Shown here piece after piece: positions 55,552 to 63,213 of a DNA stretch of 64,000 bases. The notes beneath the pieces are model-generated. The model made no database searches and was not told where the DNA came from. It was given only the letters and a program-made list of their open reading frames with translations. The stretch is taken from NCBI RefSeq assembly GCF_054482525.1, contig NZ_CM137006.1; one strand, written 5' to 3'. The position numbers were made by a program, and so were the translations under genes. Position 1 is the stretch's first letter, and each line of letters opens with the position of its first letter.

Positions 55552-56283
55552 ATGAATCAACCAATACACAATGCTTACTGGTTATCCCGTTTTGACAGCC
55601 TTCTCGACAGTGCCCTAGTGCAGCACCGTGCCGTCTCGTTAATTCGGGTGGATTTACGTTTTCCTGAGTATATGCCTGCCACTATTATGGATACCGATTT
55701 AGATTCAGCAGTGATTTCTCGTTTTTTCGAATCCCTGAAAGCAAAAATTCAGGCTTACCAGCGGAAAAAACGACGTGCCAACAAGCGTGTGCGTGCAACC
55801 ACTCTGCGTTATTTCTGGTGTCGGGAGTTTGGCAAGGAAAAAGGCAGGAAACATTATCACGTGATATTACTGCTCAACAAAGATACCTGGTGCTCGCCAG
55901 GGGATTTCACCGTTCCTTCTTCGCTGGCGACGCTGATCAAGCTGGCATGGTGCAGTGCTCTGCATCTCGAGCCCTGGCAGGGTAATGGACTGGTTCATTT
56001 TTCCAGGCGGACGCCTTTCCGTAAACCGACATCATCTGATGCTCGCCCTTCTTCCGATGATACGCCTTTGTCGGGTGGATGTTCTGAAACCAGGAAGGCT
56101 TCAGACAAAAAGCCGGGTGAAGCCGCTGTTCTCTGGGTCAAGCGTGGTGATGTGGAAGCGATGCAGAAAGCCATGGAGAGAGCCTGTTATCTCGTGAAGT
56201 ATGAGACGAAGCAGCATGACGGTTCTGGGCAACGTAATTATGGTTGCAGTCGTGGGCCGGGGCGTCTACTGGATGGCAGGTGA
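55552..56283 (+). CDS. Gp2-like protein (YfjJ/YagK family)
   Basis: 243 aa; VSLIRVDLRFP...RKHYHVILLLNKD...CYLVKYETKQ family pattern. Confidence 0.75.
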   Translation: MNQPIHNAYWLSRFDSLLDSALVQHRAVSLIRVDLRFPEYMPATIMDTDLDSAVISRFFESLKAKIQAYQRKKRRANKRVRATTLRYFWCREFGKEKGRKHYHVILLLNKDTWCSPGDFTVPSSLATLIKLAWCSALHLEPWQGNGLVHFSRRTPFRKPTSSDARPSSDDTPLSGGCSETRKASDKKPGEAAVLWVKRGDVEAMQKAMERACYLVKYETKQHDGSGQRNYGCSRGPGRLLDGR

Positions 56284-56392
56284 GCCCTGTAAAACGGCAT
56301 CCGGTGCCTGAGCATACGTCACGTAATTAACTGTCTTGACCAACAAAATTATGGAGTAACCTGATGGCAGGATTCATTACATTTCTTTGTTC

Positions 56393-57034
56393 TTTCTGAG
56401 TATCGCATTCAGGATGGTCAGCAGTTTGCGCATACAGGCTACCAGCACCGCCGTAGTCATTACGCCGATGCCTTTAATGTTGCTCAGGTGCTCAGCTGGT
56501 TCTTTAAAATGGTTCCGGATGTGGGTGTTCATCTTCCAGCGCTTTGATGATATTAATGTTTTTTTTTGCTTTGCGGGTGAGCCGGGTACAACCTGTTTTG
56601 CTCAGTAACTGGCATTGCGATCAACTGGTGTCTGCAAACGACTATGGCATTAAGAACCTGACGTTCTGCATCCGGCAAAGTCCGGATAAAGCGGTCTCGT
56701 TCCGGATGGTAATTAATAACTGCAGCCATCTGGGCAAAAAAACCGCGCATCATGCGGGTCAGTCTTCGCCAGATATCCCATCGCACGGGCAAAGTCACGA
56801 GCTTGCCTGGGGTTAACTACGGCGATCTCAAAACCTTCGGGCTGAAACGCACAGGTTATGGCGGCCTTCCATCAACACAAAGGCCATATCGTGCTGCCTC
56901 AGTTCAGCGATGATGAAATCAACGCCGTCAGCACCACTGGCAACAGAAAACCGTTCAATAGTGTTGCTGGCGGCAATATCCAGCGTTGTTTTGGACACAT
57001 CGGTATCAACACAAAGTGGATTTGGCAGACTCAT
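56393..57034 (-). pseudogene. IS110-family transposase, frameshifted remnant
   Basis: N-terminal ORF 56828-57034 (MSLPNPLCVDTDVSKTTLDIAA...), middle ORF 56553-56798, C-terminal piece 56393-56460 (...LTILNAILR-like) in a different frame. Confidence 0.6.
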
Positions 57035-57467
57035 TATTGCCCATTCTTGCTAATGCGTTATGGAGTACGGACAACTGTTCGGGTTTCAGATGAGTGGCTC
57101 AGCGTATGCGCCATTTGCTTACATATGGGCTTAAACCCTAAGGGGCCCCAGGCTGCATACGCTTTGCCAAATCTGTTCGCTGCTCATGATAACGAAGAAC
57201 CAGGATACAAGGTGGAAGATCCTCAACGCTCAGGGGCGCAATGTTCCCTGTGTTTCATGCCCCCATCGTTTGTTGCTGTGGTGCCAGACTTCTGAGGCAC
57301 CTCCATGTCGTTTTGCTTTTGTCAGCATCATAAATGCGTCGGGACTGGTGAATGGATACAAGCCATTTTATTATCGACGTCAGCGAACATACTCACAATG
57401 TCGGTATATTTCTGAACTGAACAGTAAGTTTTGCGTTGATTACAGTATGCGAAGGAGGTCCATTACA

Positions 57468-62159: not shown

Positions 62160-62396
62160 ATGTTGACCTCAATGACAGGCCACGACAGCGTGTTGCTGCG
62201 TGCTGACGATCCCCTGATCGACATGAACTACATCACCAGTTTCACCGGTATGACCGACAAATGGTTTTACAAGCTGATCAGTGAAGGCCATTTCCCGAAA
62301 CCCATCAAGCTGGGCCGCAGCAGCCGCTGGTACAAAAGTGAAGTGGAGCAGTGGATGCAGCAGCGAATTGAGGAATCACGAGGAGCAGCAGCATGA
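62160..62396 (+). CDS. alpA: AlpA-family transcriptional regulator
   Basis: ITSFTGMTDKWFYKLISEGHFPKPIKLGRSSRWYKSEVEQW; true start may be the internal MNYITSF Met. Confidence 0.75.
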   Translation: MLTSMTGHDSVLLRADDPLIDMNYITSFTGMTDKWFYKLISEGHFPKPIKLGRSSRWYKSEVEQWMQQRIEESRGAAA

Positions 62397-62506
62397 AACG
62401 TGTTGTGATGCCGGTACGCTGGCAATGTGCAAAATGCCGGCGCTGGTATTGCGGAAATCAGCCCTGTCCCTGGTGCTGGCGACATTACCGTTCATTTTCC
62501 TGCTGA
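62393..62506 (+). CDS. Small Cys-rich zinc-ribbon-like ORF (37 aa) coupled to alpA
   Basis: ATG overlaps the alpA stop (ATGA) with AGGAG 7 nt upstream; MKRVVMPVRWQCAKCRRWYCGNQPCPWCWRHYRSFSC has two CxxC pairs. Too short for the ORF track. Confidence 0.35.
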   Translation: MKRVVMPVRWQCAKCRRWYCGNQPCPWCWRHYRSFSC

Positions 62507-62664
62507 CCCTCTCCGGTCAGCCAGCAGGTTGTAGCTCTTTCCTGACTGATTCGTCATTCCATTCACATTGTTTATAACTGGCATTACACCGGTGTTGATG
62601 CGCACCTTCCCGTGTGTCTGCACCGGCTTAACAAAATTCAACAGGGTTTGAAAAGGAACATTTC

Positions 62665-63213
62665 GTGCAAATAACCGAAGCCTTAATTTCAGAGCCGGGA
62701 GACATCCGGCGTTTTGTTCAGCAGGCGGTGGACCACTGGCCGCGTCTGCTGGCAGTCCACTTCACGCTCCATTCGGCTGAAGGAAACATCAACGGGCAAC
62801 AGATTCAGGCATTCTGTACTTCCTTTTACCGACAGGTGCACGAACGTATTACTGAGCGTAATCACACTGCCTGTCCATCCTCGCCGGTGGTATTACGCTG
62901 GTTGCGGGAACAACATGGAGGAGCAACAATACGATGCCTGTTGCTGCTCAGCCAGACGAGCATTTGCCATCCGCGGGCCAGTGCCACGGTTGATGAAGAA
63001 TGTTCGCAACGGGTGGATTTATTGCAACAGACCTGGAAGGTGATAAGCGCTGGCGGACAATGCCAGGTTGAAAGGTGTTTTCGGGTTGCCCGGGGTGATA
63101 CATCTGGCCAGTATGTTGCGTTAAAAACAGTCGCATTGTCTCTGGGGTTACCGGTTGTGATCGCCATTACCCATCGTCCGGTACAGCGCTGTACATTGAT
63201 TACAGCTCAGTGA
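62665..63213 (+). CDS. Hypothetical protein, possibly divergent Gp2-like
   Basis: 182 aa, GTG start; weak pattern similarity (RLLAVHFTLHS...RCLLLLSQ). Confidence 0.45.
   Translation: MQITEALISEPGDIRRFVQQAVDHWPRLLAVHFTLHSAEGNINGQQIQAFCTSFYRQVHERITERNHTACPSSPVVLRWLREQHGGATIRCLLLLSQTSICHPRASATVDEECSQRVDLLQQTWKVISAGGQCQVERCFRVARGDTSGQYVALKTVALSLGLPVVIAITHRPVQRCTLITAQ

Follow-up and report, generated by a model that had tools for sequence, protein, structure and literature searches.

Genes for Gp2-like proteins of the YfjJ/YagK type recur in the window (the whole stretch of DNA that was analysed, 64,000 nucleotides), three of them behind long AT-rich leaders with few open reading frames, and the locus raises the question of whether such gene and leader pairs are origins of replication or mobilization. 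An earlier note had suggested that they are, describing five paralogues as homologues of filamentous-phage gene II initiators and grouping them with the leaders into repeated initiator-plus-iteron units. Two Escherichia coli genomic islands of the CP4-57-like (P4-integrase) type lie here in tandem, one represented by the region at 32.6-37.4 kb and the other by that at 47.8-64 kb, and these regions contain the following features.

33385..33570, minus strand: AlpA/excisionase-type HTH gene of the left-hand island (NCBIfam excisionase-family domain, 1e-4)
33976..34767, minus strand: 263-residue hypothetical protein, divergent from leader 1; N-terminus weakly ribbon-helix-helix-like
34768..36182, plus strand: leader 1, AT-rich, 5' of the 36183 gene; GC 0.39 overall and 0.36 in the part before the hha fragment
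35096..35161, plus strand: tandem 13-mer array of leader 1, four to five exact-phase copies of TGTAAWTNNACCY
35802..35951, plus strand: truncated Hha/YmoA-family gene of 49 codons within leader 1 (NCBIfam Hha, 4e-23)
36183..36782, plus strand: Gp2-like, short type, 199 residues; HUH is H89-I-H91, tyrosine motif Y159-LAKREQK
52992..53801, minus strand: 269-residue hypothetical protein (annotated start), divergent from leader 2; C-terminal ribbon-helix-helix merely hinted at
53916..55551, plus strand: leader 2, non-coding, AT-rich, 5' of the 55552 gene; GC 0.375
54485..54700, plus strand: iteron-like array of leader 2, about 7-8 units TACACRT..(A)CTAAGTGTTTT set about 24-33 nt apart, on one strand
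55552..56283, plus strand: Gp2-like, YfjJ type, 243 residues; HUH is H101-Y-H103, tyrosine motif Y213-LVKYETK
56437..57034, minus strand: IS110-family transposase pseudogene (RefSeq annotation), an insertion remnant between 55552 and yfjI
57468..59072, plus strand: YfjI (DUF3987) P-loop protein; RefSeq 'YfjI family protein', PHROG DNA helicase 8e-42
59073..60668, plus strand: leader 3, non-coding, AT-rich, no array; GC 0.343, CT-rich tract at about 59680-59900
60605..60676, plus strand: 23-codon upstream ORF of uncertain status, with an 8-nt overlap at the 60669 start codon
60669..61235, plus strand: Gp2-like, short type, 188 residues; HUH is H86-A-H88, tyrosine motif Y156-LAKEEQK
61519..62091, plus strand: degenerate Gp2-like paralogue, 190 residues; hhalign match to the YfjJ type, kept by selection
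62160..62396, plus strand: AlpA/excisionase-type HTH gene (RefSeq HTH regulator; NCBIfam excisionase domain, 4e-4)
62665..63213, plus strand: degenerate Gp2-like paralogue, PF27752 (UCP030791), 182 residues; hhalign match to the YfjJ type

The five Gp2-like ORFs start exactly where the earlier note had placed them (36183, 55552, 60669, 61519 and 62665, the positions by which the proteins are named here), and homology searches assign all five to a single superfamily. The Pfam families PF11726 and PF23343 (YagK_YfjJ_C and REP_ORF2-G2P) are matched by 55552 (2e-36 and 1e-7, respectively), 60669 (4e-6 and 7e-5) and 36183 (2e-4 and 9e-5), and the 36183 and 60669 proteins share 33% identity (E of 4e-33). 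The Pfam search gave no match for the 61519 and 62665 proteins themselves, which are tied to the YfjJ type solely by profile-profile comparison of enriched alignments with hhalign (Prob 97.8%, E of 1e-12 and Prob 97.5%, E of 8e-12, respectively); 60669 aligns with the YfjJ type by hhalign over 174 columns that include the tyrosine motif (Prob 95.7%, E of 1e-8). The 61519 family is narrow, and its distant homologues P0291 and P0296 carry PF11726. Homologues of 62665 bear PF27752 and are labelled 'YagK/YfjJ domain-containing' or 'inovirus-type Gp2' in RefSeq, some being named Gp2 family. The count of five paralogues, in which 62665 had been entered as a possible member, therefore stands, by Pfam for three and by hhalign for two, and when every stop-to-stop frame of 60 codons or more in the window (375 in total) was searched with four family HMMs, no convincing sixth copy emerged. 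On identical DNA, RefSeq names 55552-56283 'inovirus Gp2 family protein' and 60669-61235 'YagK/YfjJ domain-containing protein', and calls both 61519-62091 and 62665-63213 'hypothetical protein'.

These proteins are predicted members of an HUH-endonuclease-domain superfamily related to the Microviridae VP4/gpA and inovirus/plectrovirus G2P-ORF2 initiators. The 55552 protein, which contains a low-complexity insert of about 45 residues, matches PHROG replication-initiator families (1e-6 to 2e-3) and is 28% identical across 199 residues to a microvirus VP4-like initiator, with an identical HYHVIL strand. Kinship with rolling-circle initiators is thus upheld by PF23343, PHROG and the microvirus protein, but the label of filamentous-phage gene II homologue overstates it. 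The RefSeq 'Gp2' names derive from PF23343 and from PF11726, which Pfam formerly called 'Inovirus Gp2', and a tblastn search against phages returned no inovirus among the matches listed. A literature search found no biochemical or genetic data on any YfjJ/YagK-type protein.

The HUH motif and the tyrosine motif Y-L-x-K-x-x-x-K are kept in three of the five proteins (36183, 55552 and 60669), and HUH and Y-[LM]-x-K-x-x-x-K are also conserved across the families of these three; in the short-type family HUH and the tyrosine hardly vary, and the YfjJ type conserves the Tyr-Lys motif. From these motifs, three of the five genes are predicted to be apparently active. In 61519, E92-Y-H94 replaces HUH and S-D-F-A-R-D-R replaces the tyrosine motif, with Asp for Tyr; 62665 has I89-R-C91 at the HUH position and its family has no conserved tyrosine. 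Without catalytic residues, these two proteins cannot be nickases. The conserved nickase motif that the earlier note had proposed to look for is therefore found in three proteins and is missing from two, and the general absence of catalytic Tyr and HUH that it had named as contrary evidence is not what the alignments give. Purifying selection acts on each of the four right-hand genes (dN/dS of 0.13-0.46), including 61519 (0.13-0.22) and 62665 (0.13-0.46), and the retention by selection of two paralogues that lack catalysis indicates that non-catalytic functions exist in the family. Frameshifted copies of the Gp2 gene are present in two islands (L021 and L028). For the HUH fold of 61519 and 62665, the AF2 models had pLDDT values of 42 and 48 and Foldseek returned nothing significant.

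The five genes form part of a backbone that is ordinary and very widespread among the genomic islands of E. coli. In the right-hand island this is the canonical four-gene set (the 243-residue YfjJ-type protein, the 188-residue short-type protein, the 190-residue paralogue and the 182-residue UCP030791 paralogue). The order Gp2, degenerate paralogue, UCP030791, with AlpA adjoining or inside, recurs in many E. coli islands and also in distant contigs whose proteins are 32-35% identical, and the four-gene order is retained both by distant taxa and by E. coli genomes numbering in the hundreds to thousands. The Gp2 genes hold fixed positions beside AlpA rather than variable cargo slots. The view of the genes as backbone and not passengers is borne out by this recurrent order near AlpA and a helicase homologue and, for the four right-hand genes, by purifying selection. 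Insertions of IS110, IS21 and IS1 are common in this region, as are pseudogenes.

Both neighbours named in the earlier note, the DUF3987 P-loop protein and AlpA, are in place as YfjI (57468-59072) and the HTH gene at 62160-62396; fused ORF calls among homologues of the latter bear PF05930 (Phage_AlpA), and the left-hand counterpart (33385..33570) bears an HTH-regulator annotation in L002 and L029. As judged from its family assignment, YfjI is homologous to the SF6/MCM-like replicative helicases that mobile elements carry; the DUF3987 family comprises SF6 replicative helicases, one of which has measured 5'-3' activity in a mobile-element replicon (PMC4889955, PMC11724360). AlpA-YfjI-Gp2 is present on a Citrobacter plasmid. 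YfjI is absent from many islands that retain Gp2 genes, and the helicase partnership is therefore not obligatory. Pseudomonas islands that combine int and alpA with RadC and a Gp2-like gene excise and move by transduction as jumbo-phage satellites, and the Gp2-like gene is counted among their likely core functions (PMC12595487). In K-12, AlpA-driven excision of CP4-57, which bears yfjI and yfjJ, leaves cells without circles (PMC3105296), which argues against stable autonomous replication.

All three leaders are AT-rich (GC of 0.393, 0.375 and 0.343 for leaders 1, 2 and 3 versus 0.475 for the whole window). Leaders 2 and 3 carry no RefSeq annotation, and no frame of at least 30 codons in them is conserved with third-position bias across diverged homologues. 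The three long ORF-poor leaders are thus real and mostly non-coding, except that leader 1 holds the truncated hha gene (35802-35951), which is annotated in RefSeq, covers positions 24-71 of the 72 in the Hha model and is 90-92% identical in nucleotide sequence to chromosomal hha. The 23-codon ORF at the end of leader 3 is unbroken in six E. coli homologues; L005 has lost it and other genera do not have it. The stop-to-stop frame around it (60581-60673) shows 4/5/19 substitutions at codon positions 1/2/3. A search found 639 E. coli genomes that carry 80% or more of leader 1. Leader 2 is 78-89% identical in four of the five diverged islands compared (the fifth, L019, is unaligned across the leader), versus 92.5-96% for coding sequence, and the sole part of leader 3 common to islands is its 3' ~1 kb. 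Pairwise comparison of the three leaders revealed no sequence in common. Taken as a whole, the leaders accumulate changes at about the rate of synonymous sites in the adjacent genes, or faster, and constraint is confined to short blocks, namely the final ~150 nt and the arrays of repeats.

The arrays in leaders 1 and 2 are real, and their local clustering is far from chance. Region 54485-54870 of leader 2 contains eight of the 11 window-wide matches to ATACACRTRTTTT and eight of the 61 to ACTAAGTGTTTT, in both cases on one strand only. Strains differ by whole repeat units in both arrays: L029 and L030 have two and three additional 13-nt units, respectively, in the leader 1 array, and an alignment of six islands shows unit-sized indels in that of leader 2. 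The latter array is the best-conserved internal block of its leader (in L028 92% where present, versus 74-83% for the remaining leader). Leader 3 was searched for repeats and has no array, in agreement with the earlier count of two repeat-bearing leaders. The initiator-plus-iteron unit is nevertheless not a property of the family, as arrays are missing from leader 3 and from relatives in other genera. Gaps before the genes of relatives are 46-535 bp and hold no multi-copy arrays (Citrobacter, Pseudomonas, K-12 CP4-6 and metagenomic contigs), and in this comparison only E. coli-type islands have the long leaders and the arrays. The leaders yielded no convincing hairpin or nick-site candidate, no Rfam match and no similarity to plasmid or oriT-like DNA, leader 2 matching only captured island fragments. 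These long AT-rich leaders probably have a control role; their function as origins of replication or oriT would be a hypothesis.

We tentatively favour, with somewhat less than even confidence, a conserved CP4-57-like backbone module of HUH proteins, YfjI and AlpA that would serve rolling-circle replication or single-strand transfer after excision. Excision by Int/AlpA, or the activity of a helper phage or plasmid, would be the trigger. An intact HUH protein could then nick a cis site on the circular island, its tyrosine becoming linked to the 5' end of the nicked strand, and unwinding by YfjI with a host polymerase would give rolling-circle amplification or a single strand for transfer or packaging. 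The catalytically dead paralogues (61519 and 62665) may be non-cleaving DNA-binding partners or regulators. The leaders would be non-coding promoter or control regions, probably under H-NS/Hha silencing, which the truncated hha inside leader 1 fits, and the arrays putative protein-binding sites and the best candidates for the recognition site. Several observations count against this module: one of the three leader-bearing Gp2 genes (60669) has no array, homologues in other genera have neither long leaders nor arrays before them, the leaders drift at the synonymous rate or faster and gave no nick-site, Rfam or oriT-like match, many islands with Gp2 genes lack YfjI, and excised CP4-57 leaves no circles in K-12.

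A rather doubtful alternative is that the leaders are H-NS/Hha-silenced promoters of acquired DNA, the arrays being operators for AlpA or for neighbouring ribbon-helix-helix-like proteins, and that the Gp2-like proteins, HUH-intact ones included, are not initiators but DNA-binding regulators or have another non-replicative role. The low GC of the leaders (34-39%), the hha fragment in one of them, their nearly neutral evolution outside short blocks, their lineage specificity, the selection on two non-catalytic paralogues of the five and the failure of CP4-57 circles to be maintained are all consistent with it. The divergent neighbours do give ribbon-helix-helix-type matches, but these are weak and not significant: the 263-residue protein has an NCBIfam match of 0.0025 over residues 6-33 and none in PHROG or PADLOC, and the 269-residue protein reaches only 0.08 (Pfam RepB-RCR_reg), 0.27 (RHH_1) and 0.0018 (NCBIfam RepC_IncLM). 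Moreover, L018 and L020 keep the leader 2 array although the ribbon-helix-helix-like gene is gone, the Gp2-like genes are linked to a replicative-helicase homologue, and near-invariant HUH and Tyr in the short type with a conserved Tyr-Lys in the YfjJ type are hard to explain without catalysis. Mobilization in place of replication is distinctly unlikely. The intact HUH proteins would be Rep-like relaxases, leader 2 would hold an oriT and the island would be an integrative mobilizable element transferred by a co-resident conjugative plasmid, its leftward operon (DUF932, antirestriction, RadC, CbeA/CbtA) being the first part to enter the recipient, as the leading region of a plasmid is. Some integrative elements do use rolling-circle Rep homologues as relaxases (for example, the Rep_trans/MobT type), three proteins here have intact HUH and Tyr, and leader 2 lies between a Gp2 gene and a divergent operon typical of plasmid leading regions. 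YfjX, YfjZ, CbeA and YagB, which such islands encode, are translocated by an F-type T4SS (PMC11288057). However, searches of Pfam, NCBIfam and PHROGs matched no relaxase family, the only plasmid DNA that leader 2 resembles is captured island fragments, the search for a nick-site hairpin was negative and the neighbourhood has no coupling-protein or T4SS genes. The sole experimentally studied relative class spreads by phage transduction and not by conjugation (PMC12595487).

It is very unlikely that the genes and leaders are decaying, now functionless remains of an ancestral replicon, from a plasmid or a single-stranded DNA phage. The insertions and pseudogenes of the region, the frameshifted Gp2 copies and leader drift at about the synonymous rate would suit such a relic, but dN/dS is low in all four genes, degenerate ones included, their order is preserved in so many genomes and the catalytic motifs are still present. 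The HUH proteins could instead be anti-phage or anti-plasmid nucleases that nick, for example, invading rolling-circle or single-stranded DNA, a role to which we assign the smallest probability of all. Islands of this kind are rich in defence genes, such as restriction enzymes directly after the Gp2 gene in L016 and L018. The AbpAB genes (yfjK and yfjL) adjoin yfjJ in CP4-57. K-12 yfjJ is named in the AbpAB phage-defence paper (PMC10732053). PADLOC families, however, match none of the five Gp2-like proteins nor YfjI, and the genes occupy fixed backbone positions by AlpA, outside the variable cargo slots.

The favoured replication or transfer module can be set beside several known systems. In pMV158 (RepB) and the geminiviruses (Rep), an HUH nickase gene lies beside direct repeats that its product binds, near the nick site, and this is the architecture that the earlier note had in mind for leaders 1 and 2. 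The island arrays differ in lying 0.85-1.1 kb from the gene, with no nick hairpin found, with one of the three leader-bearing genes lacking an array and with homologues elsewhere lacking them too. In CRESS-DNA viruses and parvoviruses, Rep joins an HUH nuclease to a replicative AAA+ helicase, whereas in the islands the two are separate genes, the helicase is of the DUF3987/SF6 and not the SF3 kind, and its gene is often missing where Gp2 is present. YfjJ (CP4-57) and YagK (CP4-6) of E. coli K-12 belong to the same Pfam family, YagK being 31% identical to 55552, and lie in the same kind of P4-integrase island, beside alpA/yfjI or intF. The gap upstream of K-12 yagK is 271 bp and holds no array, compared with leaders of 1.4-1.6 kb here, and the YfjI-Gp2 gap on the Citrobacter plasmid is 136 bp, likewise without a long leader or array. 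The tmRNA-inserted Pseudomonas islands I23, I44 and I55 have a backbone of int, alpA, a Gp2-like gene and RadC, I55 being a jumbo-phage satellite (PMC12595487); they differ in genus and integration site, and multi-paralogue arrays and long leaders are undescribed there.

Among phage initiators, the inovirus/plectrovirus G2P-ORF2 family (PF23343) matches 36183, 55552 and 60669 weakly (1e-7 to 9e-5) and over the HUH core only. The best sequence relationship found among phages is to the Microviridae VP4 or phiX174 gpA-type initiators. The island proteins are smaller (182-243 residues, the nuclease domain alone, versus 300-500 for Microviridae VP4), only 55552 among them has the second tyrosine, and their genes are chromosomal with no capsid genes near. 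Nevertheless, the microvirus VP4-like protein and 55552 align along LRYF..E[FY]G...GR.HYHVIL, which includes the HUH strand, and both contain a Y-x-x-K(-Y-x-x-K) helix (YLVKYETK in 55552 and YVTKYMRK in the microvirus protein).

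The five Gp2-like ORFs of the window are named here by their start coordinates (36183, 55552, 60669, 61519 and 62665). Three of them are assigned directly by Pfam: 55552, which represents the YfjJ type, matches PF11726 (YagK_YfjJ_C; 2e-36) and PF23343 (REP_ORF2-G2P; 1e-7), and the same two families are matched by 60669 (4e-6 and 7e-5) and 36183 (2e-4 and 9e-5). The proteins encoded by 36183 and 60669, referred to below as the short type, share 33% identity (E 4e-33). For 61519 and 62665 there was no direct Pfam-A match and no PHROG match, and NCBIfam matched none of the five proteins.

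The placement of 61519 and 62665 came from profile comparison. An initial hhalign run of low-diversity family alignments (Neff 1.4) for these two proteins against the short-type family gave nothing, and the link was seen only after distant homologues had been added, with the YfjJ type as the hub. Relatives of 61519 are scarce: only 40 turned up when 1.84 billion representatives were scanned in full with HMMER. Its full-length distant relatives P0291 (35% identity) and P0296 (32%) themselves have precomputed PF11726 matches, and each directly precedes a gene of PF27752 (UCP030791), the family of 62665; at these two loci (L009 and L010) the genes are also downstream of AlpA and a PF23343/PF11726 gene. 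NCBI gives the name 'inovirus Gp2 family protein' to some of PF27752, and the RefSeq names for 62665 homologues include 'YagK/YfjJ domain-containing' and 'inovirus-type Gp2', the latter given to a UCP-type sequence. With the enriched alignments, local hhalign connected both the 61519 family (Prob 97.8%, E 1e-12, 118 columns) and UCP030791 (Prob 97.5%, E 8e-12, 111 columns) to the YfjJ type, as it did the short type (Prob 95.7%, E 1e-8, 174 columns), and reciprocal hmmsearch agrees with these links. Taken together, the Pfam matches, the enriched hhalign comparisons and the reciprocal searches therefore place all five ORFs in one superfamily with the YfjJ type as its hub. The count of five paralogues in the earlier note, which had listed 62665 only as a possible member, is thus borne out. 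HMM scans of every window frame of at least 60 codons recovered the same five ORFs and no convincing sixth member. A genome-contig search with 55552 found two loci only, which are near-identical, and a viral-contig search with the short-type family alignment found three.

The conservation of an HUH/Tyr nickase motif divides the family.

Residues at the HUH and tyrosine motifs of the five proteins.
36183: HUH, H89-I-H91; tyrosine motif, Y159-LAKREQK
55552: HUH, H101-Y-H103; tyrosine motif, Y213-LVKYETK
60669: HUH, H86-A-H88; tyrosine motif, Y156-LAKEEQK
61519: E92-Y-H94 at the HUH position (C/F-Y-H in distant homologues); S-D-F-A-R-D-R at the tyrosine motif, Tyr to Asp
62665: I89-R-C91 at the HUH position (other residues in the L009, L010 and L011 homologues); tyrosine conserved nowhere across the family

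The motif is present in 36183, 55552 and 60669 and missing from 61519 and 62665, so that a check on all five proteins comes out positive for three. Little or no variation occurs across the short-type family at the second His, the Tyr and the Lys positions, and Y-[LM]-x-K-x-x-[ST]-K is conserved in the YfjJ-type set. From this survey the first three proteins look catalytically competent, and the other two cannot be tyrosine nickases. The latter are nevertheless selected: comparison with diverged copies in other islands gives a dN/dS of 0.13-0.22 (61519) and 0.13-0.46 (62665), similar to the values for the intact genes 55552 (0.19-0.29) and 60669 (0.13-0.53), which indicates that the degenerate genes are not pseudogenes. 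Their AF2 models have an HUH-compatible order of secondary-structure elements, but pLDDT is low (42 and 48), and Foldseek searches of the PDB with these low-confidence models gave nothing below E 0.03. The few matches to HUH proteins among the Foldseek results (IS200/IS608 TnpA, AAV Rep) were non-significant and were set aside as evidence. No PDB sequence relative was found for the short-type family. A modest novelty is that 61519 and 62665, 'hypothetical' so far, can be recognized as HUH paralogues that are catalytically dead and belong to a conserved array of four genes. The 55552 protein also carries a low-complexity insert of ~45 residues rich in Ser, Pro, Asp and Lys (residues ~150-195; 55999-56130) between the nuclease core and the Tyr helix, which is absent from the 189-226-aa homologues of other genera.

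The window is E. coli chromosomal island DNA. The segment 53000-64000 occurs with 100% identity in many complete genomes; of 5426 complete E. coli genomes, 3294 match it at least in part, and 174 of these over 80% or more of its length. RefSeq annotation of identical or near-identical DNA describes two CP4-57-like islands in tandem, with the CP4-57-like/P4-integrase-type backbone set of tyrosine integrase, AlpA, YfjI, GTPase, DUF932, antirestriction, RadC and CbeA/CbtA.

Features around the Gp2-like genes (R, RefSeq annotation).
33385-33570, minus strand: AlpA-like gene, left island
33976-34767, minus strand: 263-aa hypothetical gene, left island
36183-36782: 'inovirus-type Gp2 protein', left island (R)
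~46083-47345, minus strand: tyrosine integrase (R)
right of the integrase: leftward operon of ParDE, DUF4942, CbtA/CbeA, RadC, antirestriction, DUF932 and GTPase (R)
52992-53801, minus strand: divergent hypothetical gene (R)
55552-56283, rightward: 'inovirus Gp2 family protein' (R)
56437-57034, minus strand: IS110-family transposase pseudogene, between 55552 and yfjI
57468-59072, rightward: 'YfjI family protein' (R)
60669-61235, rightward: 'YagK/YfjJ domain-containing protein' (R)
61519-62091, rightward: hypothetical, the degenerate paralogue (R)
62160-62396, rightward: HTH regulator, AlpA-type (R)
62665-63213, rightward: hypothetical, the UCP030791 paralogue (R)
63232-63740, minus strand: frameshifted ProQ/FinO-family gene after 62665 (100-aa fragment: ProQ 3e-11, FinO 2e-10)

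The Gp2 sets of both islands are flanked by AlpA-type HTH genes, and YfjI matches a phage DNA-helicase PHROG (8e-42). The superfamily belongs to the island backbone, where its neighbours are AlpA and a homologue of replicative helicases. The canonical E. coli order runs from the GTPase gene (minus strand) through a hypothetical gene (plus), in some cases another (minus), ~1.5 kb of non-coding DNA, a 243-aa Gp2 and cargo or YfjI to a further ~1 kb of non-coding DNA, a 188-aa Gp2, the 190-aa paralogue, the HTH gene and UCP030791. In other E. coli islands the YfjI slot is often taken by cargo such as a restriction endonuclease. Since this order recurs across islands, several paralogues per island are normal for the island type and not peculiar to the window; the module is ordinary, widespread in E. 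coli genomics and already annotated. We hold the homology and backbone statements with high confidence. A ribbon-helix-helix assignment of the two divergent neighbours (33976-34767 and 52992-53801) scored below significance.

Several local features were also recorded. A 21-nt perfect-phase tandem repeat (52998-53038, minus strand) encodes a heptapeptide (..HRLVIQNHRL..) duplicated at the C-terminus of the 52992-53801 hypothetical protein. An IS21-family element (37148-39204 region; istB 37403-38185 and istA 38182-39204, both on the minus strand) splits a DUF7828/zinc-ribbon gene, the N-terminal part of which is left at 37148-37393; the uninterrupted arrangement is found in strain VTB96959v. 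The sole Rfam match at the gathering threshold in the whole window is an IS102 RNA (25293-25529, minus strand; 79 bits).

The three regions preceding 36183, 55552 and 60669 (leader 1, 34768-36182; leader 2, 53916-55551; leader 3, 59073-60668) had been described as AT-rich and poor in ORFs. The first property stands, with GC contents of 0.393, 0.375 and 0.343 against 0.475 for the window. The second holds for leaders 2 and 3, which are unannotated in RefSeq save for occasional small 'hypothetical' calls in some strains; among six diverged copies no frame of at least 30 codons is open with third-position bias, with the single exception of a uORF-bearing frame. It fails for leader 1, which holds a truncated hha copy (35802-35951, plus strand; 49 codons, positions 24-71 of the 72-position Hha model; NCBIfam Hha 4e-23) that has 90-92% DNA identity with chromosomal hha and goes under the name of Hha/YmoA family protein in RefSeq. 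The uORF of leader 3 (60605-60676, plus strand; 23 codons, MSESINSFTALKTSLTFRSHQHA) spans the 60669 Shine-Dalgarno sequence and stops 8 nt inside the gene; six copies from E. coli islands keep it whole, their changes falling mostly at third positions, but it is lost in locus L005 and absent in other genera.

No two of the leaders resemble each other in sequence, and none of the three contains an Rfam match, an excess of promoter-like sites, or a hairpin or motif of nick-site type. More than 1500 genomes contain the 3' ~1 kb of leaders 2 and 3, at ~78-91% identity, compared with 92.5-97% for the adjoining coding sequences at the same loci. The leader divergence of 11-22% equals or exceeds that at four-fold sites (1.5-13%) and the dS (0.07-0.19) of the adjacent genes; the leaders as wholes are therefore without detectable constraint. 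Within them, constraint is seen in the ~150 nt immediately preceding each start codon, at 59823-60122 and in the leader 2 repeat block.

Other local structure is present in and near the leaders. A hairpin at 36150-36180 (plus strand; TTCTTCCT..15 nt..AGGAAGAA) pairs with the 36183 ribosome-binding site (predicted MFE of 36100-36200, -28 kcal/mol), and its sequence also precedes the homologue in the IMG/VR locus L007. A perfect 8-bp stem at 59102-59125 (ACCAACCT / AGGTTGGT), with T-runs on both sides and 30 nt past the yfjI stop codon, looks like a bidirectional terminator; if it is one, 60669 would have its own promoter within leader 3. The same leader contains a ~200-nt C+T tract (59680-59900, plus strand; GC skew of -0.45 in 59600-59999), moderately conserved among islands. 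Between 60669 and 61519, ~60 nt (61277-61340, plus strand) are ~77% identical to the last 56 nt before the 55552 start codon, with the start codon mutated, and look like a scar left where a YfjJ-type gene was once duplicated or recombined.

Iteron-like repeats had been reported in two of the leaders, and repeat arrays are indeed found in leaders 1 and 2 and not in leader 3. The leader 1 array (35096-35161) consists of five 13-mers in exact-phase tandem, with two and three extra units in two other strains. In leader 2, ~7-8 units of TACACRT..(A)CTAAGTGTTTT are spaced by 24-33 nt in the same orientation (54485-54700), with an outlier at 54858; across the window one half-motif has 11 matches and the other 61, and eight of each fall inside the array region, all on the plus strand. 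Indels of 13, 19, 34 and 50 nt among six islands coincide with its repeat units. The arrays are real and strain-variable, lie in two lineage-specific, otherwise drifting AT-rich non-coding regions and, judged from their sequence, are of a protein-binding type. Their definition as two short candidate sites is a modest gain over the 1.5-kb leaders.

The repeating unit of initiator plus iterons proposed in the earlier note is not upheld. Leader 3 has no array, and elsewhere the homologues follow short gaps: 136 bp between YfjI and Gp2 on a Citrobacter plasmid, 271 bp between yagL and yagK in K-12 CP4-6, 535 bp between alpA and Gp2 on a Pseudomonas plasmid, and 276, 261 and 46 bp on two metagenomic contigs. 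No multi-copy array was found upstream of the Gp2-type homologues at these loci (L009, L010 and L012-L015). A Klebsiella plasmid (L011) has a long gap of 1.7 kb, yet two-copy repeats only. The functional reading in terms of replication or mobilization origins was reasonable for the proteins and over-reached for the leaders. We consider it doubtful that the arrays are origin or oriT elements.

A role in nicking-based replication or transfer is the reading that we favour for the proteins, although we put it slightly short of an even chance. The intact HUH proteins would nick the excised island, leading to rolling-circle amplification or single-strand transfer, with YfjI acting as the helicase where it is present. 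The dead paralogues 61519 and 62665 may be DNA-binding partners or regulators; the leaders would be control regions, probably silenced by H-NS/Hha, and the arrays may be recognition sites. A more specific version appears unlikely: the four paralogues together would form an undescribed kind of engine dedicated to island replication or transfer. In it the nickases 55552 and 60669 would work with the SF6 helicase YfjI, the selected dead paralogues 61519 and UCP030791 would serve as origin-recognition or regulatory subunits, and the strain-variable leader arrays would provide their double-strand origin or oriT once the excised island has been activated by a helper phage or plasmid.

Mobilization by a relaxase acting at an oriT is one rival to this role. 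YfjX, YfjZ, CbeA and YagB, which the leftward operon encodes in islands of this kind, are translocated by the F T4SS (PMC11288057), a hint of a link to conjugation. However, no relaxase family appeared in the Pfam, NCBIfam or PHROG results, and the plasmid matches of leader 2 are island fragments captured on E. coli plasmids, with none of oriT or leading-region type. The 31.7-kb 'plasmid' CP088396, which carries leader 2 and Gp2 and was considered as an excised island, is really an IncF plasmid with a frameshifted island fragment. Under a defence-nuclease reading the HUH proteins would act against phages or plasmids, but PADLOC models matched none of the five proteins, nor YfjI, nor either divergent neighbour. 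A purely regulatory role would extend to the whole family the function suggested here for 61519 and 62665; three members retain the HUH and Tyr residues. A further rival is that the module is a relic, against which stand dN/dS values typical of selected genes. Excised K-12 CP4-57 circles are lost (PMC3105296), which argues against stable autonomous replication of a circle bearing yfjI and yfjJ. A nicking-based role of the intact proteins remains our preferred reading.

YfjJ/YagK-type proteins are among the uncharacterized 'y-ome' genes of E. coli K-12, and we found no functional study of them or of 'Gp2-like' island proteins in the literature. Their genes sit in the backbone of islands, present in most E. 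coli genomes, whose cargo includes virulence, resistance and defence genes. Rolling-circle nicking by the intact members in partnership with YfjI would, if real, account for the way in which 'cryptic P4-like' islands are amplified or leave the cell after AlpA-driven excision. The analysis provides three candidate enzymes with named catalytic residues and two natural catalytically dead paralogues.

Among the closest known systems are phage initiators. Around the HUH strand, 55552 matches four PHROG 'replication initiation' families (1e-6 to 2e-3). In tblastn searches of phage records the informative matches, one E. coli contig aside, are Microviridae VP4/replication initiators only (best E 3e-4). 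Aligned with 55552, one of them shows 28% identity over 199 residues and an identical HYHVIL strand, and its YVTKYMRK corresponds to YLVKYETK of 55552. The contig, 'Escherichia phage ECO111 5-P' (4.5 kb, 42% match), is an unverified low-coverage assembly node and was discarded. By these PHROG and Microviridae matches, the family is a branch of the gpA/VP4-G2P rolling-circle initiators made up of short proteins with the nuclease domain alone. The proposed homology to filamentous-phage gene II thus survives as kinship with rolling-circle initiators, but 'gene II' is a loose label from an old Pfam name, with no inovirus among the matches listed. The DUF3987 family is classed with the SF6 (MCM-like) replicative helicases that phages and mobile elements encode; for one member, from the replicon of a mobile element, 5'-3' helicase activity has been demonstrated (PMC4889955, PMC11724360). 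In Pseudomonas, excision and transduction as jumbo-phage satellites are described for islands that combine int, alpA and RadC with a Gp2-like gene, which is counted there among the probable core functions (PMC12595487). If the nicking-based role is correct, it would tie the E. coli islands to these newly described satellites.
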